Position numbers and translations under genes: made by a program | Notes under the pieces: model-generated | Seen by the model: only the letters and a program-made list of their open reading frames with translations | What the model was told of the DNA's origin: nothing | Databases searched by the model: none | Part shown: in pieces, positions 6,141 through 53,775 of the stretch | Position numbering within the stretch: the stretch's first letter is position 1 | How the letters are laid out: each line of letters begins with the position of its first letter | Assembly (NCBI GenBank): GCA_009602725.1 | Contig: WELB01000002.1 | Coordinates: forward strand, 483,780-547,779 | DNA: 64,000 nt | From: Spirogloea muscicola | Lineage: Eukaryota | Reading direction: 5' to 3'

Positions 6141-6414
6141 GCTGTTAAATGTAGTAATTTGGTGAATCAGCGGGCCGGCTTGGGTGAACATCTCTCTTTC
6201 TCTATGGGCGCGCACTTTCTTTCCATCTGACCTTTCTATTGAGCCGTGAGAGCCTCCGTGGATAAGAGGCCTCGGCACCTCGGGCTGACTGCTGAAAGTC
6301 CCGCTGCTCTGTGCGCCCAAGCCATGGCTGCCACCCACTAAGGGTACGGCTCTGTCTGCGGCCGGGCGGAGCCGTGTGCTCGCCGGCTCTATGTCCGATC
6401 TTACTGTGCTACTT

Positions 6415-6528
6415 CAATGTCCAGATTTATTGTTGATTCTGCCTGCCACGTAAGCTCTGACACGTCACTCTTCTGTCTCGATCTGACCTATCGACGCAGT
6501 ATGGCGATTGACGTCCTGTGGCGTTACA
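6415..6528 (+). mobile_element. Isolated 3' terminus related to the TIR-bounded Ty3/gypsy-like family (duplicate at ~31200-31313)
   Basis: GACCTATCGACG...GACGTCCTGTGGCGT(T/G)ACA resembles the element end GACCTATCGACG...GACGCCCTCGCGCGTGACA at ~20242-20284. Confidence 0.6.
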
Positions 6529-7500: not shown

Positions 7501-10500
7501 TTACCAGGTGGCACCGATTGAATTAGGAAACGTCAACCCAGCACCAAATGCTCCGAGATTCTGGAGCATCTCAACAACGTCTATCATTGTTGGCCTTTGT
7601 TTTGGGATATTGGAGCAGCAAAATAGCCCCGCTTTCAAGGCGCCCCGTATTTCGTCCACTTTCTTGGGGACGAATGGAGCTAGCGCCATATCAACACACT
7701 CCAACAGGCTTCTTCTGATTAAGGCAGGATCGCACCCACAAGATTAAGCTGCCACCAGCTGCAACCTCGGTCTGAAAGAAAGGGTCAACAGGCCGTTTGC
7801 CAGTGACAGTCTCCAGCAGCATCTCTCCAAAACTGAAGACATCGCTGTACTCGGTCAGTTGGCCTAGGGCGCAGTCTGGAGCGAGATACCCGATTGTGCC
7901 TGCCCATGTGCATCACCGTAACGTCATGAATTGCAGGAAAGATGACCCATGATCATTGCGAGGCAGTCTGAGGTGCCTCTACCAGCATGTATCAACACAT
8001 CCTTCTTGCACGATGCCAGAGAGCCTACGGTACAGCTCAACGGACATTGAAGGGCATATAAAGTTTACCTGCAGCCATGGTTGAAACGTGCGTTTCATGT
8101 GCCAGAAAGGCTCGTGCAAGCCCAAAATCCGCCACATAACCTTGACCATGTTCATCCAACAAGGTGTTGTTTGGCTTAACGTCCCTATGCAGCACACGAG
8201 GACTGCACTCATGATGCAGGTACTTAAGCCCAACTGCTGCATCCAACATGACCTTCATCCGTGCAGCCCAGTGATCAAACGCTTCTGGCTTTGGAGGCAC
8301 GCCCTGGCTCCCGTGCACCAAGTGGTCAAGATTTCCGCCAGGCAAGAAAGGATAGATGAGGAGCATGCCCGCTTGGCTGTCCCTGGGGATGTACCAGCCC
8401 TGTAGCGGGACCAAATTGCGATGTCTGATGCGACTCAGTGTCTCCACCTCGGCTTTCACCGATCGCAATCCTTCCTCGCTGTCTGCTGGTAGCCTCTTCA
8501 CTGCATACCTTTGGCCATTCTCCATCTGCGCACTGCTTAGCATCTCCATCGAAATGATCGTAAGTTTGTGTATACTTGACTTTAAGGAGAGGCCTGAACA
8601 ATTTGCACCAAGGATAGCACACCACCTTGCAAGTAGGCAAAGCTACTTACAAGTAGACTTTTCCAAAGCCCCCAATGCCAACTATAAAATCATCATTGAA
8701 GTTCTCAGTTGCATCCATGAGCTCCTTGAAGGTGAAGGGCGCATGGAGTCTATCCTGCGTGATGGACATCTCGGACCAGAAGTGCTGAATGCTCCGCTCC
8801 TTGTCTGGCATAGTCTTGTCCTTCGTCTTCCTCCAAGCTAAGCAGCACAGCAGGAGAAGTCCCAACAACAGGAGGAGAAGGACAACAGCCCCAACAACAA
8901 TGCCAGCAACTGCGCCCCCTGATAAGCTTGATGACTTGTGCACTGGAGGTGGTGGGGAAGGAGGATGAGGTGGGGGAGCTGTCTTGCAGGTCACATAAGG
9001 GCCGCCACACAAGCCGGCATTGCCAGAGAAGGAGCTGTTGCTGTACTGACCAATAGAACCGCCAGGAATGGGCCCACTGAGGTTGTTGTTTGAGTTATTA
9101 AAGAAGAGAGTAAGATTTAAATTCGCAAAGGACGCCGGAATGCTGCCATTGAGATCATTGTTGGAAAAATCGAGATAGGTAAGACTCGGCAGGTTGCCGA
9201 TACCCTCCGGTATGGGCCCACTGAATGAGTTGCTTGCCATCACCAGCTCTTGCAAGTTCTCCAGGTTGGAGAAGGTTGTCGGGATCGGTCCAGAGAGCTT
9301 GTTGCCAGCAAGCACGAGCCCCTTGAGCAGGACAAGCCTCCCCAACTGAGGCGGCACAAGGCCAGTTAACCTGCCAGTGATCCGGTTTAGCTGCTAAGAT
9401 TGCCAGCTGCGGCTCTTCTGCAATCTATGTATCTGCTGACACGGCAGATCAGGCAGCCTATGGCTGCATCAAAGACGCAGTCATTAGTCAGCTCCTTGCA
9501 AGGTCCAGGCAGCTACTGTTGCATGAGATAACCACAAAGTTTAGCATAGATATATGGCTGACACTTAGCAGAGGGCAGCTTCGAGCCTACTGGTTGTTGT
9601 TGACAGAAAGAACGCTGAGACTGGTGCAGTTCCCCAGCTCAGGCGGCAAAATACCAGTGAGGCTGCAATGCAAGGAAGAGCAAAGCTTAAATACAAAGTT
9701 GCCAGCATTTGGGCTATTACTGAACACAAATTGCAGTCAGCTCCTTTCAGGTCCGGGCAGCTACTCTCCATCTCTCGCTCTAGGTACTCTCCTTAAAATT
9801 GCTCACTTTGACAATGAGATGCAACCTTACGAGAATATAATATCACTTGTCATTGCCTGTTCTGGCACACACTGACACGTCATGAGAATAGCTGCAGGAA
9901 CAAAAAGTAGAACCCTCACAGCTCAATATAGCTGCACGGATCTTGATGATTTTTTTAGGAAACCTGGACCTGACTAAATCGCGATTCCAGATAGATCTCC
10001 CAAGCGCTGGCAAATTGCCATTACTGCATGCCAAGTGCATGCAGGAGGATGCACAGTAGTAGTTGCTGACCCTAATCACTATCAAGAATCCTGCTCATCA
10101 GAGCAGAAAGGTGTCTCCGCAATAAGCTGTGCATTTGCAACCCTCGAATCTGGTGAACCTTTGGCATGCTCACCTGTTGTCGTTGAGGTGGAGTTCGCCA
10201 AGCTGCGGGAGGCCACCCAGCCCCGGAGGGATGGGGCCCGAGAAAGAGTTGTAGGACAGATCTAAGTACGTCAGGTTGCCTATATTGGCAAGCTCCGGTG
10301 CCAGCGTGCCTTTGAATTGCCCGTCTCCCAGATAGAGGCCAGTCACTCGCCTGCAGATGTGTACAAGCGGCAAGCAGCGGAGAGAGCTGAGCTTGATCAG
10401 ATCTTGAACTCACACTGCACCTAGCAAGGAGCTCGCAGCAACGCTGCTGCTGGCTCTGAGGCCCTCCACGGAGCTGCCGCTAGTCCTGTGGCTGCAGAGG

Positions 10501-11084: not shown

Positions 11085-11610
11085 AAGAAAGAGCTCGCCC
11101 ATTGAGGATAGGGGCTGGAACAGCCAGCCCAAAATAGAATGGACAAAGTACGAGAAGGGAGCCAGGGGAAGCGCTAAGAAAACCAAGCACAAGAAGAAAC
11201 AAAGCAGCTACGAATGACTCAGTAATTCCTGCTGAGCAGCCGCAGATCGGAGATGCTAGGGTCCTGGAAGTGGGTCCCCTGGACAGAGCCAGAGGCAGCA
11301 GCTAGGGCTCTTCCGGCACGAAGGTGCAGCGCACGGGCCATGGACCTCTGCAGCGAGACGGCCAAGCGCATGCGATACACTTGCGCCAGCGACCCGGCTG
11401 CTGAAAAGTGGCTCTCCCAACGGGCTGGCTTTCACAGCCGCTCTGTTAATATCATCAGCAGCCGCTTACTCAACGGTGGGCCAGGGGCCGTGAGAAAAGC
11501 GCGGCCGAATTGACTGGTGGCTGGGAGAAGCCAGCCCAAAAGGAATGGACAAGGTCAAGAGGAGCCGAATGGCGCAAAAAGCAGGGGACTAAGTGCTAAG
11601 ACGACAAGGA
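11085..11610 (-). mobile_element. Cluster of RLE-LINE 3' ends
   Basis: GSLAQVYRMRLAVSLQRSMARALHLRAGRALAAASG...SDLRLLSRNY* (stop ~11219-11221) and GGGCTGGCTGTTCCAGCCC 3' motifs. Confidence 0.75.
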
Positions 11611-11839
11611 GGCTTGTCGTGCCGTATCCTGTCGACTGCTCATTTCTGTCGATCTGACTAGGACCGCTGACTGGGCTTCACACGTGACCTTACTAGGCTG
11701 ACTCATTCACTTCGGTGGGTGATTCACGCTGAGGATGAAGGACCACTTTTCTCCCTATGTGGCTCCTAGGCTGGGTCATACACTTTTGTGTGTGATTCAC
11801 GCTGACAATGGAGGTTCCACCCATCTCTGACTCTCGACG

Positions 11840-11870
<31 letters not shown>

Positions 11871-12808
11871 CGGCGGAGCGACTACAAGGGCCAATGCCCA
11901 CGCACGACGCCAACCTGCCGAAGACCGTTCAAAGCGCGACGAGGGAAGCCCATCTACAGGGACCTCAACCACCAACAAGACCGTCAAGGTGGGCGCTACC
12001 GAAGCAGTGGAAAGGCGACCGTGGAACAGACGGCCGAAGACCACCAACTCAAGGTCAGGTCGACCACTGGGTCGAATGAACGGCCCTGAGAGACCACCCT
12101 TTCCCCTTAGCCAACCAGCGAGCAGCGCACCTAGCCAATCAGGTAGCGCTAAGGTTTCACCGCATCCGGCCCATGTCGGAGCGCGCGAGCCCTGCCAAGC
12201 AGTTCGCTTGGCAAATCTCACCCTCCTGCCGCGCCTGCGCCCACCGCGCCTGTGCCGACCAAGCCTGCGTATACTCGCGCCTGCGTCCGCGAGAGCGTAG
12301 AGCCCGGCGCCCACGGCGTGCGCGCTTAGTGAGCGTTGCGCGAACCCGCTAGCGACTGCGAGAAGTCGTATTTCTTCTGTAGTGAGCAGCTTATCATTGC
12401 GCTGTTCTTGCGAGTCTTACCATCGGAGTGCTGTGCTCATTGCTTGTGCACACGTCTTTGCATTGGTTGCTTGTTTGCACGTAAGGCGCGCCCTTGAGGC
12501 CCCTTTACCATATTCACAAAAGGCGCGCCCTTGAGGCCCCTTTGAATATTGGTGGTGAACCTAGATAGGGCCGGTCTTCGGACGGTCGTGTGACTGAGAT
12601 ACTGGTGACGGGAAACTCGCGATACAGTGGCACGTTACTTTCATTTGCCAAGCGAACTCTGAGCTTGAGTTTATTGCATTGGATTGCTAGTACTTGCTTG
12701 AACTCTGCTCAAGGCTGCAAGTGCGACTGTTATCTCTGAGTTAGATTGTTGCCAGTGTTATCGATCAACTGTCGATTGCGTTGTGATCTGTTTTTCGGCT
12801 ACTATTGC

Positions 12809-15800
12809 ATGAGACTCAGGTCAGGCAATATCGTCAATCTGGAGCCTGAAGGTGAAGTTGCTTCGACAGACATTGATCTTGCATCTGAGCCAACTGGTAC
12901 TGCTGTTGCCGAATCACGTGTGGCGGCAGGTAGCTCAAGCGAGATCTCAACAACGATACGCTTTCGGAAAAGCATCAACATGGCATCAGGAGACTTGCCA
13001 AAATTCCAAGGTACACATAGCAGTGTTACTTTATCTGATGTGAAGAAACATTTCTTAGCAGAGTTGTGTCAACTGGACATGCACGGTTGCAAGGTCAGCA
13101 GGGAGTCGAAAATGACTTTACTAGCGAAGTATTTCACTGGGGACGCTGGATATATGTATGAGCAGCTTAGTGATGAGGTTTTGTCCATGACAAACCCAGT
13201 GCCTGAGTCGGCTACAGAGGTCGAAAAGCTGGCAGGTCCTCAACTAGTCGATCCTGTGGCCGAAGTCTTCCGTCGGTTCGCCAAGCAATTTCCAGAAGAC
13301 ACTCTGCAACACAAGCGAGATCTTCTTAGGTTCCAGCGAGAACCTAACGAGAATATAACAGTTTGTTATTTCAGATACGTGAAGCTGATAGAGAAGTCAG
13401 ACACCACTATCAGTCATCAGGATTTGGCGGCACAGTTCTTACGTGTTGTAGCTGGTAAAGCTCTCTGGCATGTAGTCGATTTATTGACTGTGCGCAGGCA
13501 ACAGCTCAACAAGAAACATTATGACATTCATGATGTCTATCAAGTCATGTTGGAGAGGGAGGCTGCAGAGTTCACTTTGAAAAGCTTAGATGATCGCTTT
13601 CCTGAAGTGTCCAATCCCTTCACCAGATCTGACAAGAAGTTTGGTGGTCCTGTGGTCAAGAAGCCCTTCACGAAGGCACATGTAGCCATCCCTGATGTGC
13701 AGCAGGTACCTGACCATTACAGACCTCGTCCGGCTGTGACTTGCCACAATTGTGGTAAGATTGGACACATGTCAAAACATTGTGCAGCTAGACATCAGAC
13801 TGCAGGTGCTACCTGTGGTCATTGTGCTAGATCAGGACATGTTGAGTCGCAATGTTGGCGAAAACACCCTGATAAATTGCCTGTACAATTTCGTGGCAAG
13901 AAGGCTTTGGAGATGGGAAAGCCTCCAGCTGACGGTGGTCGTGTGGATGGAGACCAACTACAGAAGTTGCAGAGACAGATTGAACAGCTGACACAACAGT
14001 TAGCTGCAAGCGAGATCAAGGCCAAGTCTAGTGCTAAGTCGGCCGCAGCTGCTGTTGTGCACTCAGATGTAGAAGAGGATGAGGATGACCTTGCAGGCAT
14101 GTATGAGGCTCAGTATGCAGCAGGGACTTCTCATAAGTATGGGTATTCTCACCTGGCATCGATTGTTGCTGCAGTACCGGAGTCTTCTAACACGGCAAGC
14201 AGAAACCCAATGAAGCGAGGTGAAAATGCTATGCAGCAACTTGCTAGGACCGGCAATGCTAGGTACCCTGCAAGTTTCAAATTGAAGGCCACTCAACCTG
14301 ACTTTCTTCTATCACAGCCTCAGCTTGTTGTGAAGTCCACAGAGCCGAAGGTTACTAATCCCACTTCACTTAGTTTTGATTGCACGTTGTCCGCTGGGAA
14401 GCTGTTGGACAGGTTGTACACAGCACCTGTTTTGAGCATCAACGACCTAGGATGGACGAAAGAGGCATTGAGTAACATGCTGACCAATACTGCAGTTGAG
14501 GTTGTGCAGAACTTGCAGACTACATCTGTCGGAACTGCCACCTACTCTGAGAATAGGGCACAGTCATGTGGTTTGGATATTGTGCCTCTCAGGTCATCGG
14601 AGGAACGAAAGAAACAGTTTTCCACAGTGACAATGCTAGATAATAGTTCAGGCATATTAGAGGTCAATGCAGTCAAGCCTAATGTCGTGTTGTTAGACAC
14701 AGGGGCTCAACCGATCCTTTTGGGTCGGCGTATGATCGCTGAACTGGGTCTAGACTCTTGTGACATAGCCCCCAGTAACATCAAGATTAAGACTGCTACT
14801 GGTGGTACAGATGCTATCTTAGGACTGACCAGAAAGCCAGTTCAAATTACTCTGTATGCCAATGTCCCTAGCAGACGGACTACTTTGTCAGTGATCTGCA
14901 TGATCACTAAAGCTAGAAGTTATGACATTCTGCTAGGAACTCAATTTCTGGTGCCCATAGGTTTCGGTATGGATTTTTACAGTGAAGCAGCTTGGTATAG
15001 ACCTGATTGGCTAAATGCTGGTACTGACATTGTCCCATTACCGTTGATGAAATCGTGTACCAATGCAGACATTGAGGCCAATGCAGGGGTGCCAACTACA
15101 GACGATGTTGTGGACAGTGAGGAGCTAATGAAGCAATTGGAGAATGGACTGGAGGGAACAGAGGAGCCAACTGAAGAGCAGTTGGCCAGTCTGAGAGATG
15201 AGCTGAGGGAGATGGAGGATGTGACTCCCCCAGCCAATTCGCCACCGACCGATGCACCAGCTATTGCTCCATTAGTCAATGTTCCATCAGCTGCTACTGC
15301 TATCACTGCTGCTGCTGCGACTGCCGCTGCTGCGACTGCCGCTGCTGCTATCACTACTGCTATCGCTACTGCTGCTGCGACTGCTGCTGCGGCGACTGCC
15401 GCTGCTGCTGTTACTACTGCTACTGCTGCTACTGCTACCGGTGCTGCTGCTGCAACTGCCGCTGCTTCTGCCACTGCTGCTGCTGCTACTACTGCTGCTG
15501 CTGCTGCACCACCAACGGCACCAGCACCACCAGCGCAGAATCCACCAGGTGGACAGAAGAGAGAAATTTCACCGGCGTTTCTACGTGCAGCACTTCAGCC
15601 TGCCAAAATGATGAAACCACTCACTGCAGCAGGACTGAGTGACAGGGACTTGGCAGAGTTGACCGTTGAGGAGAATTTCCGACGGTACCTTGCGATGTTA
15701 CCAGATTGGTCTGCCACGGCAGCAATTCGGGTGGAGGAAGCATGGACATTCAAAACTTTCAATGTTTCGATGACCAACCCAGGACAAAATGAAGAGGCAG

Positions 15801-16975
15801 CCGAAGATAGGAGATTCTACGCCGGAGTTATCCCTTTCGAGTTTGGAGAGCAGGGATTAGTGGTACTAGAGTTGTTTGGAGGCAGCGCCGCAGGGTTGGC
15901 GGGTTTGTTGCGCAGCCGCTACCGAATTGCGCAGTATATTTACGTGGATAATAATCCGGCCTCACGTGAAGCTGCAGCCCACCACATCTCCATACTCAAG
16001 GAGCGGTACAACCACCTGGTGACTCCAAATACGTTTGCAACCTGGGATACTCTACTCCCAGGAGATATCCGGGAAGCGGAGAAAGTGGAGTACCTCAAAC
16101 TCTTACCCCAGGTGGACCTGGTTATCGCAGGCTTCCCTTGCGAGGGCTTCAGCCCTGCAGGCCGAGGGGAGGGATTCGGTCATGTCAACTCAGCCCTTTT
16201 CTTCCCAATGCTACGCATCCTAAAACATATCCGTAGCAGACAAAGGAAGCCCATGGCTTACATAATAGAAAATGTACAGCCAGATGATGATGCCATTGAT
16301 GCGAACAACCATTTCCGTAGGTTGTATCACATATTGGGTCCTTTTGTGACCTTAGATGCGGCAAGGGTTAGCTCGTTAGCCGACCGGAAAAGAATTTTTT
16401 GGACAAATCTGGCACCTGCGCAGCTCCTGCAAGCCTGCATCAACGGCCAGGAACGACATGACAACGCCAGGGTTGAGCTCATCCTTGATGCCGGACGGAG
16501 GGTACCACTGGTCACACTTCAAGCGACACAACATCCAGTGAACCGTCCAGGACAAGTGCGATGCACTTTACCGACCTTGGTGGCTTCTGACAAGTCTGCC
16601 GGATTCAGAATCCGGAATGGTATCATTGGTCAGGGCATGATCCTCGTTTCGCCTGTGAATACTCCAGATGTTTATGCTACGCCAACACCTCGCGAACGCG
16701 AGAAAAGCATGGGCTTCTGGCCTGGCGACATCACTCCCCATCACTTCCCTGATGTGCTCAAAAATCGTATCATAGGTCAAGCCTTTGATCTTAATGCCAT
16801 TACCTGGTTGGCTAGTGTGCTTGGTCGCTTACAGACTAAGTATCGCATGCTGAGAGTAGCGTATGAGCGTAGTCTTCTACCTCCACCTCAAGGTTCTCCA
16901 ATGTCGGTGATTGATAGGCGCATGCTGACCCTATTCCGATTTGTTGAAGCAGAGAGGGAAGAGGATGACGAATAG
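12809..16975 (+). CDS. ORF1: Gag (two CCHC knuckles) - aspartic protease - Ala/Thr linker - C5 cytosine DNA methyltransferase
   Basis: Likely start MRLRSG (ATG 12809; frame open from 12746); CHNCGKIGHMSKHC and CGHCARSGHVESQC; LLDTGAQ protease motif (~14690); DNMT motifs downstream. Confidence 0.9.
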   Translation: MRLRSGNIVNLEPEGEVASTDIDLASEPTGTAVAESRVAAGSSSEISTTIRFRKSINMASGDLPKFQGTHSSVTLSDVKKHFLAELCQLDMHGCKVSRESKMTLLAKYFTGDAGYMYEQLSDEVLSMTNPVPESATEVEKLAGPQLVDPVAEVFRRFAKQFPEDTLQHKRDLLRFQREPNENITVCYFRYVKLIEKSDTTISHQDLAAQFLRVVAGKALWHVVDLLTVRRQQLNKKHYDIHDVYQVMLEREAAEFTLKSLDDRFPEVSNPFTRSDKKFGGPVVKKPFTKAHVAIPDVQQVPDHYRPRPAVTCHNCGKIGHMSKHCAARHQTAGATCGHCARSGHVESQCWRKHPDKLPVQFRGKKALEMGKPPADGGRVDGDQLQKLQRQIEQLTQQLAASEIKAKSSAKSAAAAVVHSDVEEDEDDLAGMYEAQYAAGTSHKYGYSHLASIVAAVPESSNTASRNPMKRGENAMQQLARTGNARYPASFKLKATQPDFLLSQPQLVVKSTEPKVTNPTSLSFDCTLSAGKLLDRLYTAPVLSINDLGWTKEALSNMLTNTAVEVVQNLQTTSVGTATYSENRAQSCGLDIVPLRSSEERKKQFSTVTMLDNSSGILEVNAVKPNVVLLDTGAQPILLGRRMIAELGLDSCDIAPSNIKIKTATGGTDAILGLTRKPVQITLYANVPSRRTTLSVICMITKARSYDILLGTQFLVPIGFGMDFYSEAAWYRPDWLNAGTDIVPLPLMKSCTNADIEANAGVPTTDDVVDSEELMKQLENGLEGTEEPTEEQLASLRDELREMEDVTPPANSPPTDAPAIAPLVNVPSAATAITAAAATAAAATAAAAITTAIATAAATAAAATAAAAVTTATAATATGAAAATAAASATAAAATTAAAAAPPTAPAPPAQNPPGGQKREISPAFLRAALQPAKMMKPLTAAGLSDRDLAELTVEENFRRYLAMLPDWSATAAIRVEEAWTFKTFNVSMTNPGQNEEAAEDRRFYAGVIPFEFGEQGLVVLELFGGSAAGLAGLLRSRYRIAQYIYVDNNPASREAAAHHISILKERYNHLVTPNTFATWDTLLPGDIREAEKVEYLKLLPQVDLVIAGFPCEGFSPAGRGEGFGHVNSALFFPMLRILKHIRSRQRKPMAYIIENVQPDDDAIDANNHFRRLYHILGPFVTLDAARVSSLADRKRIFWTNLAPAQLLQACINGQERHDNARVELILDAGRRVPLVTLQATQHPVNRPGQVRCTLPTLVASDKSAGFRIRNGIIGQGMILVSPVNTPDVYATPTPREREKSMGFWPGDITPHHFPDVLKNRIIGQAFDLNAITWLASVLGRLQTKYRMLRVAYERSLLPPPQGSPMSVIDRRMLTLFRFVEAEREEDDE
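15854..16810 (+). other. C5 DNA methyltransferase catalytic domain (DNMT3-like appearance) within ORF1
   Basis: Motifs in canonical order: I VLELFGG, II YVD, III GDI, IV DLVIAGFPCEGFS, VI IIENV, VII DAA, VIII RKRIFWTNL, IX EREKSMGF, X IGQAF. Confidence 0.9.
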
Positions 16976-16981
16976 CAATTA
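16973..16981 (+). promoter_or_regulatory. Stop-codon readthrough signal UAG-CAA-UUA between ORF1 and pol
   Basis: TAG CAA TTA matches the tobamovirus-type UAG-CAR-YYA leaky-stop consensus; the same frame stays open from 16976 to 20089. Confidence 0.8.
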
Positions 16982-19900
16982 CAATGTGTAGCCCATACTG
17001 CTGATAAATCCATTGTTGAGTACAAGTGGCAGCTGGGTCTTCAGTTGAGTGATGAACAGAGGCATCGACTAACGATAATGCTTCAGGAGAATATTGCATG
17101 TTTTGCTTTCTCGGCAGCTGACTTAGGTACTTATGTGGGTGCCAAGTTCCAAATTAAACTCAGTGACGACAAGCCTATCTTCCGGAAGAGGTATACCTTG
17201 TCTCCATATGAGGATGAGCTTGTAGCGAAGAGATGTCAAGAACTGCTTGCTCTTGGTATGATAGAACCATCTAATAGTTCTTTTGCAGCACCTACAGTCC
17301 TACCAGCGAAGAAAGACGAGCATGGCAACTATACTGACAGACGCATGTGTGGTGACTACCGGTTGCTGAATGCAAATACACCCTTGGATAGGTATCCAAT
17401 GCCCACTCCGGAAGAGATTTTTAATCGCATAGGTTCTGCAAAGCTTTTCTCTGTCTTGGATTTGAAAAATGGGTTCAATCAAATTGCAATTGAGCCTGAT
17501 GATAGACACAAGACTGCATTCTGGGGCGTAGATACACTATATCAATGGACAAAGATGCCGTTTGGACTGAAGAATGCACCGTCTATGTTTCAGCGTGTTA
17601 TGGACCAGGTGTTGAAAGGAGTTCCATACGCCAAATGTTACATAGACGATGTTCTGATATTCAGTCATGAATTTGTTGAGCATGTGACTCATATTGACTC
17701 TGTTCTTAAGATGATACAGAGTTCAGGTTTGAAGTGCCATCCAGGAAAATGCCGGTTTGCACTCACTGAGGTCCATTATCTTGGGCATCAGATAACAGAG
17801 AATGGTCTTTCTCCGCAAGATAGCAAGGTGCAAGCAATCCTGTCCATTCCTGCACCTACCAATCTTACATCTTTGAGATCGTTTTTAGGACTTGCCAGTT
17901 TCTATCGTCGGTATATTGAGCATTTTAGCTCTTTGGCTCGTCCTCTCAACAGTCTGCTCAAAAAGAATACGCCTTGGCTATGGGGATCGGAACAGGAACA
18001 CGCTTTTTGCCAGTTGAAGCATTCACTGACAACAGCTCCTGTTTTACGACGTCCTGATTATGCTAAAGAGTTCCAGTTGCATACAGACTGGAGCAAACTC
18101 GGCATGGGAGCTGTACTTGTGCAGCAGGACGAAGATCACCATGATTATGTCATTGCTTATGCAAGTCGTTCTAACAATGCTGCCCAACGTAATTACTCTG
18201 CTTATGAAGGCGAATGTCTTGCAGCTGTTTGGGCTGTCACGCATTTTAGACCGTACTTATATGGACGACCTTTCAAGCTCGTCACAGATCATCAACCTTT
18301 GAAGTGGTTACTGACCACTAATCATTTGACTGGCAAACTCGCCCGATGGGCACTACGTTTGACAGAATATAAGTTTGAAATTGTTCATAAGCCAGGACTG
18401 CAGAATCTGGACGCAGATGCTCTGAGCCGCAACCCTATACCGGCAACTATGGATGAGCAATTCGCCTTGCTTTCAATTGCTATTGTGTCAGTACCTCTGA
18501 GTAGTCCTGCTTCTTACCTGGCATGCTTTGCTATGCATTCGCCACATGCCTGTGCTATAGACGGCCCTGATGATACCTTCTTTTCCAAAGATGTTTGGCT
18601 GGATCTGCCTGCACTTCATTACCTACAGAATGGCATGTATCTACCTCATCTTTCTACCATACAGAAGGATCGGGTAAAACACCGGGCCCGACGCTATGTC
18701 TGGCAAAACAATCAACTTGTTCGTCCGCATGAGGAATACGGAAACCAGGTTGTTCCTCCTCCTGCTGAACGCTTACAACTCGTCCAAGATGTTCATACGA
18801 ATTATGGACACTTCGGTGTAAAACGTACAATCAGTCTTCTCATGCCTAGATATTGGTGGCATGGTGTGACCAACACTGTTAAACAGGTTCTGTCACAATG
18901 TGAGGAATGCGACCGCATCCGTAGCACATTCTCCCTGAAGTCTCCAGTATTACATCCTTTGCCAATTGAAGGGCTCTTTTACAGATGGAGTCTTGATTTG
19001 GCGGGACCACTTCGACTGGGTGAACGGCAAAGGCCGTATGTTCTCATTATGATCGAGCATTTCTCTAAATGGGTAGAAGTTGTTATTATTCCTACCAAAA
19101 CTAGTGAACTCATCGCTGATGCTTTCAAGAATGCTGTGCTCACCCGGTATGGTGCTCCAGCAGAAGTGCTTACTGATCGAGGCACTGAATTCAAGGGTGC
19201 CTTTCAGCAGCTGTTGGACCGCAGCTTCATTGATCACCGTCTTACATCAAGGGATCATCCGCAGGCTGATGGTTTAGCAGAGCGGATGGTGCAGACGATA
19301 AAGAAAGGTTTGATGAAATATGTGATGAAACATGGCATGGAACGCTGGGACCAATTTTTACCATGGCTGATTATGGGCTATCGAATGTCAAACCAGACTT
19401 CTCTGTCTTGCTATAGTCCCTATTTTCTGCTATTCGGTCGACACCCTGTCATTCCATCTAACATCCGTCTTGTCAGTAACGACGTAAACCTGGATAACCC
19501 AGTGATTTGGTACAAGGTCTGCGCGGCCAGAGGCAAACTCTTCCAGAAGCATATGCCGATGGCCCTGAACAACTTGCGTATCGCTCAGCATCGGGATACT
19601 AACAGGTACGCTACCATTCGTAGTGGTGGGTACAAACCACAGTCTAAAGACATTGATCTTGGTGACTTTGTGTATGTGAAGGTGAAACCACAAGACGCCT
19701 TAGACTCTTCAACAGGACCTCTCATCCTTCAGGTTGTTGAGAAACACTCTTCAGGTGTGGTTAAACTTCGTGGTTCATGCAATCGTGTAATCAGTGATCA
19801 TGTTCAAAATGTTACACGTTGTCATCTGAGCAATATTGATCCAACCATTGACCCCACTAACCAATGGGTTTCTGAGAATCTATCTTGTGAACTTTGTCAG

Positions 19901-20089
19901 CGTTCCGATCAGGCAGTTCAAATGCTTTTATGTTCTCTTTGCAATAGGGGTTTCCATATACACTGCCTTGATCCACCACTGACTTCTATTTCACTGGCTG
20001 ATTGGTTCTGTGTGACCTGTTCAGATACTTTCCTAACTGCTCCACCTGTGCCAGGACTGACACTTGGGGGGGGGGGAACTACAGATTAA
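16976..20089 (+). CDS. pol: Pol: reverse transcriptase - RNase H - DDE integrase - C-terminal PHD finger
   Basis: RMCGDYRLLN, LDLKNGFNQI, MPFGLKNAP, YIDD (RT); TDWS...E...TDH...DADALSR (RNase H); H-H-CEEC, DLAG, TDRG, AERM (integrase); C4HC3 PHD at 19886-20020. Confidence 0.95.
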   Translation, partial: QLQCVAHTADKSIVEYKWQLGLQLSDEQRHRLTIMLQENIACFAFSAADLGTYVGAKFQIKLSDDKPIFRKRYTLSPYEDELVAKRCQELLALGMIEPSNSSFAAPTVLPAKKDEHGNYTDRRMCGDYRLLNANTPLDRYPMPTPEEIFNRIGSAKLFSVLDLKNGFNQIAIEPDDRHKTAFWGVDTLYQWTKMPFGLKNAPSMFQRVMDQVLKGVPYAKCYIDDVLIFSHEFVEHVTHIDSVLKMIQSSGLKCHPGKCRFALTEVHYLGHQITENGLSPQDSKVQAILSIPAPTNLTSLRSFLGLASFYRRYIEHFSSLARPLNSLLKKNTPWLWGSEQEHAFCQLKHSLTTAPVLRRPDYAKEFQLHTDWSKLGMGAVLVQQDEDHHDYVIAYASRSNNAAQRNYSAYEGECLAAVWAVTHFRPYLYGRPFKLVTDHQPLKWLLTTNHLTGKLARWALRLTEYKFEIVHKPGLQNLDADALSRNPIPATMDEQFALLSIAIVSVPLSSPASYLACFAMHSPHACAIDGPDDTFFSKDVWLDLPALHYLQNGMYLPHLSTIQKDRVKHRARRYVWQNNQLVRPHEEYGNQVVPPPAERLQLVQDVHTNYGHFGVKRTISLLMPRYWWHGVTNTVKQVLSQCEECDRIRSTFSLKSPVLHPLPIEGLFYRWSLDLAGPLRLGERQRPYVLIMIEHFSKWVEVVIIPTKTSELIADAFKNAVLTRYGAPAEVLTDRGTEFKGAFQQLLDRSFIDHRLTSRDHPQADGLAERMVQTIKKGLMKYVMKHGMERWDQFLPWLIMGYRMSNQTSLSCYSPYFLLFGRHPVIPSNIRLVSNDVNLDNPVIWYKVCAARGKLFQKHMPMALNNLRIAQHRDTNRYATIRSGGYKPQSKDIDLGDFVYVKVKPQDALDSSTGPLILQVVEKHSSGVVKLRGSCNRVISDHVQNVTRCHLSNIDPTIDPTNQWVSENLSCELCQRSDQAVQMLLCSLCNRGFHIHCLDPPLTSISLADWFCVTCSDTFLTAPPVPGLTLGGGGTTD

Positions 20090-20289
20090 AATTCGACTGT
20101 TCTTGACTTGTCCATGGTGCTGTGATGTCTGGCATGGTTCCTTAGCAGATGGATTTTCATGACAGTCTGGTCAAAGTAGCCAATATTCTCGTTTGGCTTG
20201 TGTGTACACCAAACTAGCAAGTCGGCATTTCTCTTCTTCTAGACCTATCGACGCCATCTCGCACCGACGCCCTCGCGCGTGACAGGCTC

Positions 20290-20386
20290 TCAGTACCCTC
20301 TAGTCAGCAAGTGCAGGTCAGAATAGCTAGAGGGCGGGAAGATGTCGCCCTGACGAAACCCGGAGGCAGCCGCCAGGGCGCGGCCC
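20290..20386 (-). mobile_element. RLE-LINE C-terminal fragment whose 3' UTR was split by the gypsy-like insertion
   Basis: RALAAASGFRQGDIFPPSSYSDLHLLTRGY*; its UTR continues leftwards from 11614 to ~11500. Confidence 0.75.
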
Positions 20387-20690
20387 TGTGAGCGAGAGCA
20401 CCCAGTGGCCACTTGAGTTGCTGTGCGCTTTGATGACGCTTATGCGCCAACCGGCCCTTTCAGGCCTTGTACACCCTTCGGGCTGGCTGTTCACAGCCCT
20501 AGCCCCCCTTCGGGAGACCCACTTGCCATCTCTCTTGCCGTGGGAAGCGCTTACTCTCTCCCCTTATCCACTCCTTGACTTTTCCAAGACTCCTGACGCT
20601 CGTCCTCTTTGAGGCTGACACCTCGCGCGCCGCCACCTGCGCGCAGCCCCCCGCCTCTGGCACCGCCCACGAAGTCCCGCTCGTCTGAGC

Positions 20691-20776
20691 ATGGCAGCCG
20701 CTCTGGCCGGCGCAGCCGCGGCGCTCGTCGCCGTCGCGCAGCTGGATTGCTTCGCCTCCGCCGCCGGGGACCCTGA
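20691..20776 (+). pseudogene. Orphan LRR-RLK signal-peptide first exon
   Basis: MAAALAGAAAALVAVAQLDCFASAAGD followed by a GT donor; near-identical to 39533-39618 and 25954-26051; no downstream exon on this strand. Confidence 0.6.
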
Positions 20777-20999
20777 GTGGGCAGCCCGTCCTCCTCCGTC
20801 CACTTCTGGCCACTTCAGTCGCTGTGTGCTCTAACGATTGTCCGGCCCCTTCGTTCATTCCTTTTCTGGGCTGGCCTCTCCCAGCCACCGCGCTCTCATG
20901 GAAGCATCTTACTTTCGAACTTCATTCATCCTGTTATTTGCGCTGGCCGATCACAGCCATCGCCCTCTACAAGGCCCGAAAGGGCCGGGCAGTCAGCCT

Positions 21000-23261
21000 T
21001 CCGAGGTCCGGGCAGCTTTTGTTGCATGAGATTTTCAAAAAGCATAGCAGAGAAATATTGTTAAATTTGGGCAGAGGGCAGCTTCGAGCCTACTGGTTGT
21101 TGTCGACAGACAGAACACTGAGACTGGTGCAGTTTCCCAGCTCAGACGGTAAGATACCAGTGAGGCTGCAATGCAAGGAAGAGCAAAGCTCACATACAAA
21201 GTCGCCAGCATCTGCGCTTTCCCTAAGCACAAATTGTCAGCTCCTTTCAAGGTCCGGGCAGCTACTGTTGCATGAGATAAGCAAACAGTATAGCAGAGAT
21301 AAATGGCTGACACTTGGCAGAGGGCAGCTTCGAGCCTACTTGTTGTTGTTGACAGAAAGAACACTGAGGCTGGTGCAGTTCCCCAGCTCAGACGGTAAAA
21401 TACCAGTGAGGCTGCAATGCAAGGAAGAGCAAAGCTCACAAACAAAGTCGCCAGCATCTGGGCCTTTTTTTAGAACACAATCTGCAGTCAGCTCATTTCA
21501 AGGTCCGGGCAGCTCCTGTTGCATGAGATATCCAAACAGTACAGCAGAAATATATGGCTGACACTTGGCAGAGGGCAGCTTCGAGCCTACTGGTTATTGT
21601 CGACAGAAAGAACTCTGAGCCTGGGGCAGTTTCCCAGCTCAGATGGTAGAATACCAGTGAGGCTGCAAGGCAAGGAAGAGCAAAGCTCACATACAAAGTC
21701 GCCAGCATCTGGACCTATTGTTAAACACAATCTGCAGTCAGCTCCTTTCAAGGTCCGGGCAGCTACTGTTGCATGAGATATCCAAACAGTACAGCAGGAT
21801 TATATAGCTGACACTTGGCAGAGGGCAGCTTCGAGCCTACTGGTTGTTGTTGACAGAAAGAACGCTGAGAGAGGTGCAGTTGCCCAGCTCAGACGGTATG
21901 TTACCCGAGAGGCTGCAATGCAAGGAAGAGTAAAGCTCACATACAAAGTCGCCAGCATTTGGGCTTTTACTAAATACAAATTGCAGTCAGCTCCTTTCAG
22001 GTCTGGGCAGCTACTCTTCATCTACTGCTCTAAGTACTCTCCTACATGTTGGTCAATCTGACAATCAGATGCAACCTTACAAAGAATACATGATCACTTG
22101 TCATTGCCTGTCCTGCCACACACTGACATGTCATGACAATAGCTGAACATAATAGAAGCAAAACTCTCACGGCTCAACATAGCTGCACATCTCCTAATGA
22201 ACTTTTGAGGAAACCTGTTCCTGACTAAAGCTCGATTTCAACTAGATCTCCAGAACGCTGGCAAATTCCCATTAGTGCATGCCAGTGCATGCAGGAGGAT
22301 GTACAGTAGTAGTTGCTGACTCTAATCACCAGATGAAATCCTGCTCATCTGAGCATAAAGAATCCTCTGCAATAAGCTGTGCATCTGCAACCCTCAGATA
22401 TGGTCAACCTTTGGCATGCTGACCTGTTGTCGTTGAGGTAGAGTTCGCCAAGCAGCGGGAGGCTACCCAGTGCAGGAGGGATGGGGCCCGAGATACAGTT
22501 GTTTGACAGGTATATGTTGTACAGGCTGTCAACATTGGCAAGCTCCGGTGCCAGCGTGCCGTTCATTTGCCCGTCGTTCAGAAAAAGCCCAATCACTAGC
22601 CTGCACGTGTGTACCAGCGGCCAGCAGCGGAGAGAGCTGAACTTGATCGGTCTTGGACTCACACTGCACCTCGCAAGGAGCTCGCAAATACGCTGCTTGC
22701 TCAGTAGCCCTCCACTGAGCTGCCGCTAGTCCTGTTGCTGCAGAGGAGGCGGGCCCTGCAGGGTCACGACCTCGACTCTGGCGGCCGCTGGAGTTAACAA
22801 TGCTTGTGCACTGCCTGATTTCGTTATCGTTGTCGCACAAAACACCGTGCCAGTCGCACGGCCAGTTATGACTGGTGAGGCGCCAGTCGGTGAGATAGCC
22901 ATAGGGGTCGTGGGTGATGCGAGCCTTGAAGGCCAGCAGCGCAGCCTGGTAAGAGCTGCGCGGGTGAGGATGACGGGCACTCAGCCGGGGAGGGGGGCAC
23001 ACGGAGGCCCACGCAGCTGTGGCGCTGGAGTGCAGCCGCAGCAGGGAGCCCGACGGCGAGTGTGGCGGACGAGGAGAGGGCTCGCAGGCGCAATGTGCTT
23101 CGTTTGGGAGAGCCACTTGATGCTCTAGGCGCAATGTGCTTCCTGGCGCAGGAGTAGCCGCGGCGCGGAAGGGCTGCTCACTTGAGGTCCCCGGCGGTGG
23201 CGGAGCCGAGGCGGGTGAGCAGCGCGACGGCGGCGAGCGCTGCGGCTGCCATGCTCGCCAT
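21000..23261 (-). pseudogene. LRR-RLK copy B, 3'-truncated (signal peptide, N-cap, 2-LRR exon, four tandem 72-nt LRR exons; no TM or kinase)
   Basis: MASMAAAALAAVALLTRL; AALLAFKARITHDPYG; GTLAPELANVDSL; four ~247-bp units with acceptors near 21913, 21663, 21412, 21165; homology ends at a TE mosaic near 21000. Confidence 0.8.
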
Positions 23262-23579
23262 GGCGGGCCCGCGGGAGCCCCTCCCGGGCGGCGGCGGCGG
23301 CGGGCCAGGGCGGGCGTAAGTCAAGACGGGGCTTTCGGAGAAGTGGCTTCTCCAAAGGGGGGCAAGGGCTGTGAATGAGAGCACCCAGCGGCCACTTGAG
23401 TCATGTGCTTTTAACGCTTTCGTGCCATCCGGCCCTTTCGGGCCTTGCACATTCCTTTGGGCTGGCCTCTCACAGCCGCTGCCGTATGTGGAAGGGCTGT
23501 TTTTTCTATGCGGCCCCTTTCGGACCTTGTCAAACCTTTTTCCGCTGGCTGTTCACAGCCCTTGCCCCCCTTGCACACC

Positions 23580-29892: not shown

Positions 29893-31197
29893 TGCTCCCT
29901 GCAGGCATCCCTTCACACGAATGGGCGGCCTGGGCTGCAGGTCACTTGAACAGACGGCGCAGGCAGCCTTTCTCGGTTGCTGGCACCAGGTTGCCTCCCT
30001 CCTCCCCTTGCGCTTCCCTTGTCTGGCGGGCCCTGCAGCCGAGGTGGAAGAAGGCTCCTTGGCATTCCAAGTGCAACTGAGGAGCACCCGCGAGTCAGCA
30101 CTCTGCTCCTTCCCCTCATTGCAACCCCTCTTCACTCCCTTCTCAGCGCTTGCTCAAGCATCAGACAAAGGGGCACATGCCAGACTCCTTGCTGCATTTG
30201 AAGACGAGCGCCGCAAGTCGTTGAAGACGATGCCGGATATCATGACCAATCCAAGGAGTCTGGCACGCCTCACATCGCTCGCAACGACTGGTGCAACTGA
30301 TTGGCTCACCACACACGCAATCCACAATGCTTTTAGAATCAGCCCCGAGGCACTCCGGACGCTTCTTCAGCTGTTGTCCTGGGCCTGCCCCCGACCTGAC
30401 TGATTGGAGTAACTCAGTGTGAGTGCGGCTTCCGTGCGGAGGGCGGAGACCTTGCCACCCACATGATGCGGTGTCCCACAGGCTCTGAGGTGGTGGGCGT
30501 CCTTAACCTCCTACAGGACGCCCTGGCGGGCCTGATGCGCAACGCCGGCTACCGCGCCATTGTGGAAGTAAGCAATGTAATGCCCATCACCACGGATTCC
30601 CAGGGACGCCATCACCGTCGCACCCTGGACATTGTGGGTGTACAACCTGGCGGTGGCCCACGCGCCTTGGCTGATGTGGTGGTAACGGAGGCACACAAGA
30701 GTTCTGCTTCGACGCACACTGCTGGCCACGCAGTGGGAGGTGCTGAGCAGAGAGAGCTTCGACACTACTCTGACCACCCCCGCAGCGATCACCTCCTACC
30801 GGCGGCAATCGACACTTTCGGCTGCATGGGCCCTCGCTTCCACACCTTACTGCAGAATATTGCAAGCCTGGGATACGCTCGACGTGAGGATATGCTTCCA
30901 GCTCAGATGAGCATGTCGGTAGCCTACTTGTCATTCTTGCGTCGTCGAGTGTCAGCTTGTCTGCAGCGAGCTCAGGCTCATGCGTTGCATCAGAAAGCTG
31001 GTCGAGCCTTAGCTGGTAGCTCAAGAGCTTGTCGATTGCCGTCCGGTATTCGGGCATCAGTTAGCGACCTCTATGTGCTGACTCGTGGTTACTGAGCGGG
31101 TTAGCTTAGCAGCAGGTGACGTACATTTGTCAATGTGCTTGCCTTCGTACTTGGCTACAAATGGCCCTCCATCTCTTAATACACACGCATTCCTCTT
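29893..31197 (+). mobile_element. 5'-truncated RLE (CRE-like) LINE: RT thumb, zinc knuckle, restriction-like endonuclease
   Basis: RMGGLGCRSLEQTAQAAFLGCW; GATDWL; QCECG..H..RC; RRTLDIV..ADVVV; ends LTRGY* at 31095; absent from the paralogous site at ~6415. Confidence 0.85.
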
Positions 31198-32330
31198 TAA
31201 TGTCCAGACTTGGTTTGTTGATTCTGCCTGCCACGTAAGCTCTGACACGTCACTCTTCTGTCTCGATCTGACCTATCGACGTAGTATGGCGATTGACGTC
31301 CTGTGGCGTGACAGCCAGCACGGAAAGAAGTGACCAGGTCCGAAAGGGATGAAAATCTGCCGAAGCACATAGTTAAGTCAGCCTGTGAAAAGCCAGCCCA
31401 AAGAGAGTTGACAAGGTCGGAAGGGGCCGAGAAGCGCTGGAACACATATTTAAGCAACTACTATGCAGAAATCACTCATAAATCACCCATCAAATTTCAA
31501 CTCAGCAGCCGCAAGTCAGAAAGACTAGCAGCCGGAAGCAGTCCCTTGACGAAAGCCAAAGGCTGCAGCTAGTTTAAGAACCGTTTTTTTCACTCTCACC
31601 ACTGTGACGACCATGCTTTTAAGGTGGTACATTACAGCTGTTTCTGCCACCGCTGCAGAACGCTCTGAGCTCAATCTCCTTCCACTGACCACAATGCTAC
31701 TGGGACGCTGATGGGACGCTGCCCACCTTAAAAATGCTACTGGGACGCTGATGGGACGCTGCCCACCTTAAAAGGCTGGCCATCTCCCAACTCCCTTGGC
31801 ACAAGAGCTTGTCAAATGCCGTCCCGTATTTGGGCATCAGTCAGCGACCTCTATGTGCTGACTCGTGGTTACTGAACGCGTCAGCTCAGCAGCACGTGCT
31901 GTTCATGTGTCAATGTGCTTGCCTTTGTACTTGGCCGCTCAGGCCGTCTAAAACTCAATACACACTCCATTCATTTCTTTATTCACACCCTCAGTCTCTC
32001 TCCTGCTCCCTCTCGCCGTTCCCTTCATTATCTGTCACCTTTCTCCCCGATCAAGCTCGCCAATCACTCTCACTCTCCTCTGCCTCTTCCTCTCCTGGCA
32101 CTATCACCCTTTCATTCGAGTTCTCCGTGTCTCACACTTCTTGATATGTTGTGCAACAAAACCACGGTCAGCAGGCAAATGGAGTGACGGGGGAGTGCAC
32201 AAACACAGACCTGTCATAACAATTAGAAATAATCTTTGCAGCATCAAACCTCGACCTCCAGGAATCTCATGTAGGGCTTTGGCATAGTGCCAGCCAAGAG
32301 AGGGATGTGCACGAAGTGGATAAAACTGAA

Positions 32331-43200: not shown

Positions 43201-44206
43201 ATTGAGATCGGTGAAAGCTGAGATGGAGACACTGAGTCGCATCAGACATCGCAATTTGGTCCAGCTACAGGGCTGGTACATCCCCAGGGACAGCCAAGCT
43301 GACATGCTCCTCATCTACCCTTTCTTGCTTGGCGGAAATCTTGACCAGTTGGTGCACGGGGGCAAGGGCGTGCCTCCAAAGCCAGACGCATTTGATCACT
43401 GGGCTGCACGGATGAAGGTCATATTGGATGCAGCAGTTGGGCTTAAGTACCTGCATCATGAGTGCAGTCCTCGTGTGCTGCATAGGGACGTCAAGCCAAA
43501 CAACACCTTGTTGGATGAACATGGTCAAGGTTACGTGGCCGATTTTGGGCTTGCACGAATCTTTCAGGCACATGACACGCACGTTTCAACCATGGCTGCA
43601 GGTAGCTTTTACTGCCTTTCAATGTCTGCTGAGCTGTATCGTAGGCCTCTCTGGCACCGTGCAAGAAGGATGTGTTGGTACATGCTGGTAGAGGCACCTC
43701 AGACTGCCGCGCAATGATCATGGGTCATCTTTCCTGCAACTCATGACGCGTCACGGTGATGCACATGGGCAGGCACAGTCGGGTATCTCGCTCCAGACTG
43801 CGCCCTAGGCCAACTGACCGAGTACAGCGATGTCTTCAGTTTTGGAGTGATGCTGCTGGAGACTGTCACTGGCAAACGGCCTGTTGACCCTTTCTTTCAG
43901 ACCGAGGTTGCAGCTGGAGGCAGCTTAATCTTGTGGGTGCGATCTTGCCTCAATAACAAGAAGCCTTTGGAGTGCGTTGACATGGCGCTAGCTCCATTCT
44001 CCCCCCAAAAAGTGGACGAAATACGGGGCGCCTTGAAAGCGGGGCTATTTTGTTGCTCCAATATCCCAAAGCAAAGGCCAACAATGGTTGACGTTGTTGA
44101 GATGCTCAAGAATCTCGGAGCATTTGGTGCTGGGTTGACGTTTCCTAAGTCATCATTGCCAATAGACGGGACGGCAATGGACAAGCTTTTGTGCCACGGG
44201 ACTTGA
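40245..44206 (+). CDS. LRR-RLK copy D, apparently intact
   Basis: Exons 40245-40312, 40537-40674 (GC donor), 40942-41118, 41631-41702, ~41916-41987, 42114-43019, 43137-43600, 43773-44206 splice in frame: signal peptide, N-cap, LRRs, GNPALCG, TM, RD kinase. Confidence 0.85.
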
Positions 44207-52466: not shown

Positions 52467-53775
52467 TGTCATGCCAGATGGTGTCGACTGCAAGTGATGC
52501 CGATAGGAGTATCTAGACTGAGAAATGACACAATAAGACCGCGTGATACTAAACGATAGTAAGAGGAAGTCATCTGTGAACATAGCAGGAGAAAGTTGGA
52601 AGATCAAACAGTTTTTATTCGGAAATTGTCTGAATTGATCTTGTGTAGCTTCAGTGAAACATGTTTTCTGCTGTCTATAGAGTATCTTGTGTCCAATATC
52701 CAAGTCAATGAGACCCTCCGAAGAGTGGCCCTATTTAAGTGACTCTCACCAAGGAGACCTCCGAAGAGCAGCCGCTCTTTACCGGGCTGATGGTTTTATG
52801 CAAGCATACAAGTAGAACAATGCGAGCAATCTGCAAGAGCATACACGCCAGCATTAGATTTCAGCACGTATACTCAAACAATGAGTACAACGCTTAGGGT
52901 GTAAAGACTTCAATGAGCAGCACAGTAGTCAAGGCTTTTCACATGGAGTCGCAATGATTTCTCGCAGTCTGCACGCGGCTTTGCGCAAGGCACACTAGCT
53001 GTCTGCGCCGTATGCTCCGGGCTTTGCGCTCTGTGGGCGTGGGCGCGGACGCAGGCGCGGGTGGGCGCAGGCGCGGCAAGATGGTGAGACTGGCCAAGCG
53101 AACTGCTTGGTGAAGGCGGCTCGCCCCGGATTGGGCCGAGATCCTAGCGCTGCCTGATAGGCCAGGTTCGGCCGTCGGCTACGCTGGTTGGCTAAGCTGG
53201 TTGACCAACCTTCATTGACGAATCACCTGACCCGCTGGCCGACTCGACCCAGGAAGGGATCCAGCCGCTTGTTCACGATCGCCCCGCCACCGCTTCTGTA
53301 GCTGACTTGCATCTTCCGACTTCTTCCGACTTGCATCTTCTGACTAGAGTTTACTGAGCGTCCCCTTGCTGATGTCTTACTCCTTAGCACTCTGGCTCCT
53401 TCAGACCTTGTCCATTCCTTTGGGCTGGCCTCTCTCAGCCACCAGTAAATGTGGCCGCGCTTGCATTTTTGTAGCGCCTACCTTCACGGTCTTGTGGGTG
53501 GTAGAGGTGCCTTCAGATGGGCTTCCCTCGTTGCGCTTCGAACGGTCTTCTGACGGTCGGCGTCGTGCGTGGGCTTTAGCCCTTGTGGTCGCGTCGTTGT
53601 TGTAGTCCGCTTGTGATGAGCGGTCGCCTCGATTCGATCCGGAGGAAGTTCCCCATCCTTGGCTCGAATCACAACCAAAAATGTATGACTCAGCCGCAGG
53701 AATCCACGTGTCAAGCCAGGTCAGCTGTCCTGGTCAGATCGACACAATAGGCCGTCGAAATGATATAGGACGACA
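52467..53775 (-). mobile_element. Second, more diverged non-autonomous member of the TIR-bounded family, containing a LINE 3' insertion
   Basis: Ends TGTCATGCCAGATGGTGTCGAC... and ...GATATAGGACGACA; homology to ~11615-12600; flanks CCCC/CCGC; internal insertion 53303-53469 with TSD TGTAGC. Confidence 0.78.

Follow-up and report, generated by a model that had tools for sequence, protein, structure and literature searches.

A Ty3/gypsy-type retroelement of Spirogloea muscicola with a probable permuted long terminal repeat

How does an element with uninterrupted gag and pol frames regenerate its ends when no repeat flanks it? The question is raised by an 8670-bp insertion at 11615-20284 (+) of a 64,000-nucleotide stretch of DNA from Spirogloea muscicola (Eukaryota; NCBI GenBank assembly GCA_009602725.1, contig WELB01000002.1, positions 483,780 to 547,779 of the forward strand), referred to below as the window. 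A preliminary description had assigned this insertion to the Ty3/gypsy type but with no long terminal repeats (LTRs). Our analysis indicates instead that the LTR is very probably present in a permuted form, B-GC-A. Segment B, the trailer behind the polypurine tract (PPT), at 20077-20284 (+), would be the 5' part of the repeat (start of U3), and segment A, the leader up to the primer-binding site (PBS), at 11615-12642 (+), its 3' part (rest of U3, R, and U5), such that the integrase ends lie in mid-LTR. The end of A was placed from the PBS position and from a shorter copy in the window (copy 3, below).

Element ends and their junction

The insertion starts with TGTCGTGC and finishes with GCGTGACA, giving TGT...ACA termini, and the target-site duplication (TSD) GGCT noted in the preliminary description was found on both sides, at 11611-11614 (+) and 20285-20288 (+). 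The left copy was also apparent from an empty form of the host repeat in contigs of public runs X1, X5, and X2, in which a joint from 11609 to 20284 skipped 8674 positions, corresponding to the 8670 bp of the element plus 4. These contigs probably derive from paralogs of the host repeat rather than from the window locus, because 5 to 6 letters per ∼100 differ. As had been reported, no direct repeat links the leader and trailer (9 nt was the upper limit found here), and the two ends align as inverted repeats, at 14/46 positions without gaps and at 26/46 with one gap, a score that 1 in 5000 dinucleotide shuffles attained. Segment A begins at the left integrase end TGTCG, with GTCG at +2, +17, and +34 (and a CAA tract at 11830-11882), segment B terminates in ...GTGACA, the right integrase end, and GTC(G/A) recurs at positions 2, 17, and 33/34 of both ends. 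Arrays of GTCG at +2, +17, and +33/34, whole or partial, occur in several related families; they are predicted, and likely, to be protein-binding sites, and their presence explains why the ends had the look of imperfect terminal inverted repeats (TIRs).

Contigs from X1, X2, and X6 connected the 3' end of the element to its 5' start, from 20285 to 11615 with one extra C, yielding ACA-GC-TGT. At this B-A junction, a 2-nt GC spacer lies within the 10-bp palindrome GACA-GC-TGTC (GACAGCTGTC). The shorter side of the junction contig extended over 200 letters in X6, the junction was seen again in X1 and X2 at 94% likeness, and the joints listed for X5 and X7 did not include it. The depths of the junction and coding contigs were 158.7 versus 88-253 in X1, 990 versus 1081-1624 in X2, and 6.2 versus 3.2-4.8 in X6; contig depth does not measure copy number, and these values are of similar order only. 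In X2, A and B reached ∼2-fold the depth of pol, a value for which overlapping contigs were summed and which was therefore not counted in favor of a longer form of the element. Other joints in X1 and X5 (16201 to 19917, 12380 to 12929, and 12658 to 18467) represent plentiful internal-deletion derivatives of the window family, one of which retains Gag-protease and part of the DNA methyltransferase (DNMT) while lacking nearly all of Pol.

Repeat boundaries and coding region in the window and in relatives

Directly behind A, at 12643-12658 (+), is a putative self-priming PBS of the Tf1 type, which pairs perfectly over 16 bp with 12201-12216 (+), the presumed RNA 5' end and self-primer. The latter segment was paired in both the minimum free energy and centroid folds, and none of 500 shuffles reached the 16/16 pairing. 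Loci L002 and L004 each possess one 16-bp (16/16) pair, and in L008-L080 the pair is located directly behind A in one register in 13/16 rows, with 9-13 of 13 positions in Watson-Crick pairs versus ∼8 for control 13-mers. The TGG start of a tRNA-type PBS was seen behind A in 0/7 rows checked, no tRNA gene was found, and there was no Rfam match in 11500-13000. The earlier statement that no canonical tRNA PBS is recognizable holds in this respect, but a primer site does exist, the self-priming pair 12643-12658/12201-12216. The PPT is the run of 11 G residues at 20066-20076 (+), correctly noted before, and in relatives B begins directly behind it. Thus, both a PBS behind the 5' repeat and a PPT before the 3' repeat are present in the window element, each with its presumed function.

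Two shorter copies of the element lie on the minus strand of the window. Copy 2 (48407-50482, −), with the TSD GCTG, is non-autonomous and consists of A, a non-coding filler, the end of pol, the PPT, and B; its 5' and 3' parts were 74% and 93% identical to the main copy, and its ends were identical at 36/46 and 45/46 positions. Copy 3 (52467-53775, −), with the TSD GCGG/GGGG and a 173-bp insertion at 53475-53303, is likely, judging from its sequence, a solo A-B unit of a sister subfamily. Its A extends to its own primer site plus 4 nt (52655-52652) and is followed by sequence resembling the start of B with no PPT. The best match within copy 3 to the B start of copy 2 fell at PBS+4 (window background of 0.0004, with 7 offsets allowed); the same match using the B start of the main copy had a background of 0.003. 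The 3' part of copy 3 displayed no detectable homology to the main B outside the two ends (6/200 and 103/200 shuffles). Because the rest is too diverged to align, three features were used to assign its B, namely the match to the B start, the absence of a PPT, and the array at the terminus. The 3' end of copy 3 matches the 5' end of the main copy at 20/25 nt, as had been stated. The termini are real integrase ends common to independent insertions, not the product of a decayed LTR, which agrees with the preliminary description, and its suggestion of an unusual way of regenerating ends is supported. A very high-copy dispersed repeat (11085-11610, 20289-20950, 53475-53303, and many others) hosts all three insertions at G/C-rich 4-mers, and this repeat is mobile itself because one copy, inside copy 3, carries the 5-bp duplication GCTAC.

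A search with a 36-protein alignment yielded 430 related stretches, and the analysis used the best 80 loci, whose Pol was 40-53% identical. The layout in the L008-L080 family is A-gag/pol-PPT-B-(2 nt)-A-B with TGT..ACA ends and a 4-bp TSD. A direct repeat of >100 bp, named in the preliminary description as a finding that would overturn its reading and absent within the window element, is therefore present at the family level, where the split repeats (A...B-A-B) measure 170-370 bp. The B-A spacer was 2 nt in 20/20 relative rows (GC in 9, GT in 6, AC in 2, AT in 2, and AA in 1), and the non-GC spacers may be remnants of a decayed methylated C. These rows correspond to 19 insertion sites, with duplicates between assemblies removed by their common flanks and boundaries set by hand from BLAST coordinates. 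Another 8 sites stop after the first B, and for most the 5' end is out of view. Among the 12 rows with both ends, 7 had an exact 4-bp TSD (6 distinct sites), 1 matched at 3/4 positions, and 4 matched at ≤2/4. The TSD sequence varied in relatives, and was GGCT, GCTG, and GCGG in the window. The same palindrome lies 130-210 bp 3' of the PPT in three more families, L001/L002, L004, and L008-L080, the distance being 130-150 bp in the first two.

The second B of relatives starts at the base behind the PPT, and the G-run was retained in 0/20 rows. The A|B joint varied, with positions of PBS+2 in 7 rows, +0 in 5, +1 in 1, and +3 in 2, along with ∼PBS+44 in 2 rows of one site and larger deletions in 3 rows. 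This variability, compared with the constant 2-nt junction of the attachment (att) site, fits the joining of free cDNA ends. The distance between the two A segments within an element was 0.112, compared with 0.164 between elements (p=1.4e-4, n=10), and the corresponding values for B were 0.098 and 0.132 (p=1.5e-4, n=17); the within-element closeness also holds for transversions alone. The 1-1, 2-2, and 1-2 repeat distances were equal, with no position-specific lineages of A or B, which indicates that the repeats are homogenized like LTRs, as expected if they are recopied from single templates. Copies L034 (A-coding-B-A-B) and L041 (A-coding-B) have common flanks (96-97%) and both show the TSD CCAA. 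Since they differ only in the second A-B, the short form can arise from the long form.

The two frames of the window element are uninterrupted, as previously described, and both contain the catalytic motifs. ORF1 (12809-16975, +; 1388 aa) encodes Gag with two CCHC knuckles, an aspartyl protease, an Ala/Thr-rich linker, and a C5 cytosine methyltransferase, whereas ORF2 (16976-20089, +; 1037 aa) encodes reverse transcriptase (RT), RNase H (RH), an H2C2/DDE integrase (IN), and a PHD finger. Pfam-type matches comprised zf-CCHC, aspartyl protease, and C5 DNA methylase in ORF1 and RT, RNase H, H2C2, rve, and PHD in ORF2, and the domain search returned no chromodomain or tyrosine recombinase. The DNMT matched PF00145 (E 6.5e-12) with its motifs present, and the domain is also found in relatives L001, L002, L012, and L062. 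The closest solved structure to Pol was Ty3 Gag-Pol (PDB match, E 4.5e-103). A single in-frame TAG followed by CAATTA (16973-16981, +) separates the frames, with TAG-CARYYA also present in L001, L002, L003, L012, and L047. We take CARYYA to be a readthrough motif behind a stop codon, so this is likely, on sequence grounds, a readthrough point into Pol. The DNMT would then likely be made at Gag-like levels because the TAG lies 3' of the methyltransferase. Given the gypsy-type RT and the order Gag-protease-RT-RH-IN, together with the A..B-A-B layout of relatives and the lack of two direct LTRs with outer TG..CA flanking the coding region, the window element is classed as a Ty3/gypsy variant, not a canonical member.

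RT and IN trees of the same 57 rows, each row containing both domains, separated an identical 50-row clade from animal-type gypsy rows and gave largely the same subclades; the window row was on a long branch, and no Tf1 or REXdb references were included. A single capture event involving a TIR element is therefore unlikely. The agreement of the trees, the PBS and PPT that bound the repeat, and the split repeats of relatives also speak against the earlier idea of an intermediate between retroelement and DNA transposon. A quick tree, weak at its deep nodes, placed RTs P0028 and P0064 of Klebsormidium nitens among the relatives. No relative was found in a viral contig collection, whose 7 matches to a 16-nt junction pattern were left out of account. 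Chlorophyte-type relatives P0125, P0140, and P0147 have the DNMT between RNase H and integrase (Pfam match weak to clear in 2/3), unlike the window element, in which it sits between protease and RT. Both the DNMT and the PHD reach beyond charophytes, with matches named Chlamydomonas eustigma, Haematococcus, Closterium, and Marchantia. The proteins P0123 and P0124, which show DNMT-IN-PHD but no RT, were considered as a possible DNA-transposon offshoot. They are probably pieces of relatives with the order RT-RH-DNMT-IN-PHD: in the relatives closest to P0123 (63-64% across the full region), RT-RH lies upstream of this region, and P0124 was judged alongside P0123.

Proposed replication route and rival explanations

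From the observed layout, palindrome, TSDs, and PBS/PPT boundaries, we infer a route with reverse-transcription, end-joining, and integrase steps, and we regard it as the likely mode of replication. A complete A-gag/pol-PPT-B-GC-A-B copy would produce a terminally redundant RNA that begins at ∼12201 within the first A and runs as far as the corresponding part of the second A. The RNA 5' end would prime on the PBS behind A in the fashion of Tf1, the plus strand would start from the G-run PPT, and the resulting linear cDNA would be [B-GC-A]-coding-[B-GC-A]. Its free ends, the end of A and the start of B, would be joined imprecisely, either in a two-LTR circle or by repair after strand transfer, as the heterogeneous A|B joints suggest. 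At the 5' junction, integrase would then cleave both strands after CA; these staggered cuts would leave the usual 2-nt overhang, and insertion with a 4-bp TSD would give A-coding-B-GC-A-B. Recombination between A segments would reduce a copy to a solo A-B unit, of which 53775-52467 is a likely example.

The main copy in the window has the A-coding-B form with no second A-B. Recombination between B segments is a plausible, if tentative, origin of this form; direct integration of a one-LTR circle or of a doubly cut cDNA is possible but less so, and collapse during assembly is unlikely. With no second A for strand transfer the copy is likely a dead end in cis, although it could supply proteins. 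More broadly, we lean slightly toward a green-lineage clade of Ty3/gypsy elements with the att site in mid-LTR, for which cutting of a palindromic junction is the obligatory route and either the DNMT or the order of strand synthesis selects the junction.

Several points weigh against the proposed route. It is read from sequence rather than from cDNA, RNA-end, or integrase data, and the repeat-structure counts come mostly from one old family, L008-L080. In the window's own family only the B-GC-A joint and one solo A-B were seen, which falls short of A-coding-B-A-B because head-to-tail tandems or free circles give the same joint. The A-to-B joint (12642 to 20077) was absent for this family (0/8 joints, and 0 among the 15 of 270 joints listed), though variable joints may have been dropped from contigs, and one X2 contig was continuous from 12272 to 12792. 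Among relatives, 3/16 rows (L059, L067, and L068) fell outside the self-priming register, 4/12 rows with both ends had no clean TSD, and the nearest neighbor of a repeat was its own partner in just 4/11 cases for A and 6/17 for B, low counts that reflect the age of the copies. The mirror product A-B-A-coding-B occurred in 0/15 distinct insertions with a visible 5' flank, compared with 10 insertions that have B-A at the 3' end. A circle cut randomly at either identical junction should also yield this product, so a step that imposes polarity is needed; the 5' LTR may become double-stranded first, or methylation by the DNMT of the element may mark one junction.

The missing mirror forms would be accounted for by replication like that of Ngaro and PAT elements, in which an RNA from A1 to B2 undergoes template switches that rebuild a circle, the A|B joint is inherited, and integrase, in place of a tyrosine recombinase, opens the circle at the palindrome. 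The repeat order is the same as in such split-direct-repeat elements, and a longer A end is common to two rows of one site. We nevertheless consider this explanation improbable because the second B starts exactly at the PPT boundary and the second A ends at the PBS boundary, the A|B joint differs between insertions, and A and B lack position-specific lineages. Slightly less probable still is that A-coding-B is the normal product in this host, no dead end, with head-to-tail tandems or one-LTR circles transcribed across B-GC-A. The abundance of the B-GC-A joint, with no A|B joint listed for the family, would suit that template, as would the A-(internal)-PPT-B structure and clean TSDs of both the main copy and copy 2, but in copy 3 A meets B at the PBS boundary with no PPT, and relatives have the long form. 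The integrase step would in any case be the same, so that only the template changes.

A very improbable alternative is a cut-and-paste DNA transposon of the Ginger type, with TIRs and with gag-pol either as cargo or as a past capture. Features reminiscent of such elements are the TGT..ACA ends, the 4-bp TSD, the imperfect inverted ends of 46 bp, the PHD finger (present in some Ginger1), and the non-autonomous copies with both ends; however, intact RT/RH, PBS, PPT, and a readthrough-type stop are kept across families, the RT and IN trees agree, relatives have split direct repeats, and the TSDs do not fit the Ginger1 CCGG/CCGT. That these structures come from an error of assembly, or from an ordinary LTR element rearranged by chance, is scarcely credible. 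The window does contain a gap of 804 N, and identical young repeats could collapse, yet it also holds three independent TSD-bearing copies, the empty form exists in other runs, and the same ends are found in distant families; collapse may shorten a copy but could not produce permuted ends.

Relation to known systems and neighboring features

The permuted arrangement compares with canonical Ty3/gypsy elements in its protease-RT-RH-IN order, PPT, TG..CA ends, and 4-bp TSD, but in those elements the integrase ends adjoin the PBS and PPT instead of lying in mid-LTR. Integration from the ends of linear cDNA is the accepted picture for retroviruses and LTR retrotransposons, and the long debate over whether junction-bearing circles can be true precursors has drawn on side reactions. 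The present family is a natural one that seemingly lacks a usable att site at the ends of its cDNA and has a conserved att palindrome within its LTR, so this question becomes testable with a short defined substrate. Circle junctions of the IS3/IS30 type, with abutted ends and a short spacer as the reactive site, offer another parallel, although these elements use a copy-out process rather than reverse transcription. Reports on foamy virus (PMC1180852), whose integrase is reported to cleave two-LTR circle junctions, and on HIV-1 (PMC1905944 and PMC4372172) concern palindromic att junctions cut by a DDE integrase, as proposed here. The retroviral palindrome is made by ligating linear ends and represents a side path in these accounts, whereas in the present element it is encoded and copied within the LTR as apparently the sole att site.

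The pairing of the window PBS with the presumed RNA start resembles the arrangement in Tf1, for which passages of PMC7175516 describe self-priming by a PBS complementary to the RNA start. No match to a chromodomain, as carried by the Tf1/Tcn1 chromoviruses, was found in the window element, which possesses DNMT and PHD domains; the words "PHD" and "methyltransferase" are absent from the main text of PMC6317226. Ginger1 and Ginger2, as outlined in passages of PMC2836005, combine TGTNR ends, a 4-bp TSD, a gypsy-like integrase, and in some cases a PHD finger with TIRs of 40-270 bp, no RT/RH, and CCGG/CCGT (Ginger1) or RTATAY (Ginger2) targets. By comparison, the window element retains RT, PBS, and PPT, and its inverted ends span 46 bp with 26/46 matched using one gap. 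The A-B-A-B repeat order is shared with Ngaro, PAT, and VIPER, which are described as using a tyrosine recombinase in place of the DDE integrase (rve/H2C2) and TSD seen here.

The closest precedent is KnitGypsy-Dnmt3 of K. nitens (de Mendoza et al. 2018, PMC5890265), also a Gypsy polyprotein with a C5 DNMT, for which the legend of Fig. 4c gives DIRS-type repeats with Gypsy domains. By that legend its layout is A-coding-B-A-B, as opposed to the A-coding-B of the window copy; the comparison is one of layouts, not of sequences. The passages on it in PMC5890265 mention no TSD, att palindrome, self-priming site, or mechanism, and they report that its DNMT lacked activity in yeast, a result called inconclusive by the authors. 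The name "KnitGypsy" was found only in PMC5890265 among the literature searched. No published account of the mechanism of this layout or of an internal att palindrome was found, with repeat databases (Repbase, Dfam, REXdb, and GyDB) and subscription journals lying outside the search. The permuted layout is thus already in print, as one figure-legend sentence. New here are a young, intact-looking member, the GC junction at the level of reads, a self-priming site from which the LTR boundaries can be placed, and the constant att junction set against the variable end-joining junction. A permuted LTR would account for the DIRS-like repeats of KnitGypsy-Dnmt3 as well. LTR finders that depend on two flanking repeats are expected to miss or mis-cut such elements, so annotations of algal and bryophyte genomes may underrepresent the clade.

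Elsewhere in the window, 6412-6528 and 31195-31313 (+) are duplicated remnants of a B-type end of another family (...GTGACA with GTC arrays), with the same flank after each. Frames for leucine-rich repeats (LRRs) and protein kinases are clustered at 8040-9393 (−), 22532-23320 (−), 32821-34468 (−), and 42034-43714 (+); they resemble LRR receptor kinases, three being near-copies and some split by stops, and they suggest a streptophyte host. Tandem arrays of ∼250-bp units (20997-21981, 34538-37517, and 9494-9731) lie beside the LRR-kinase copies.

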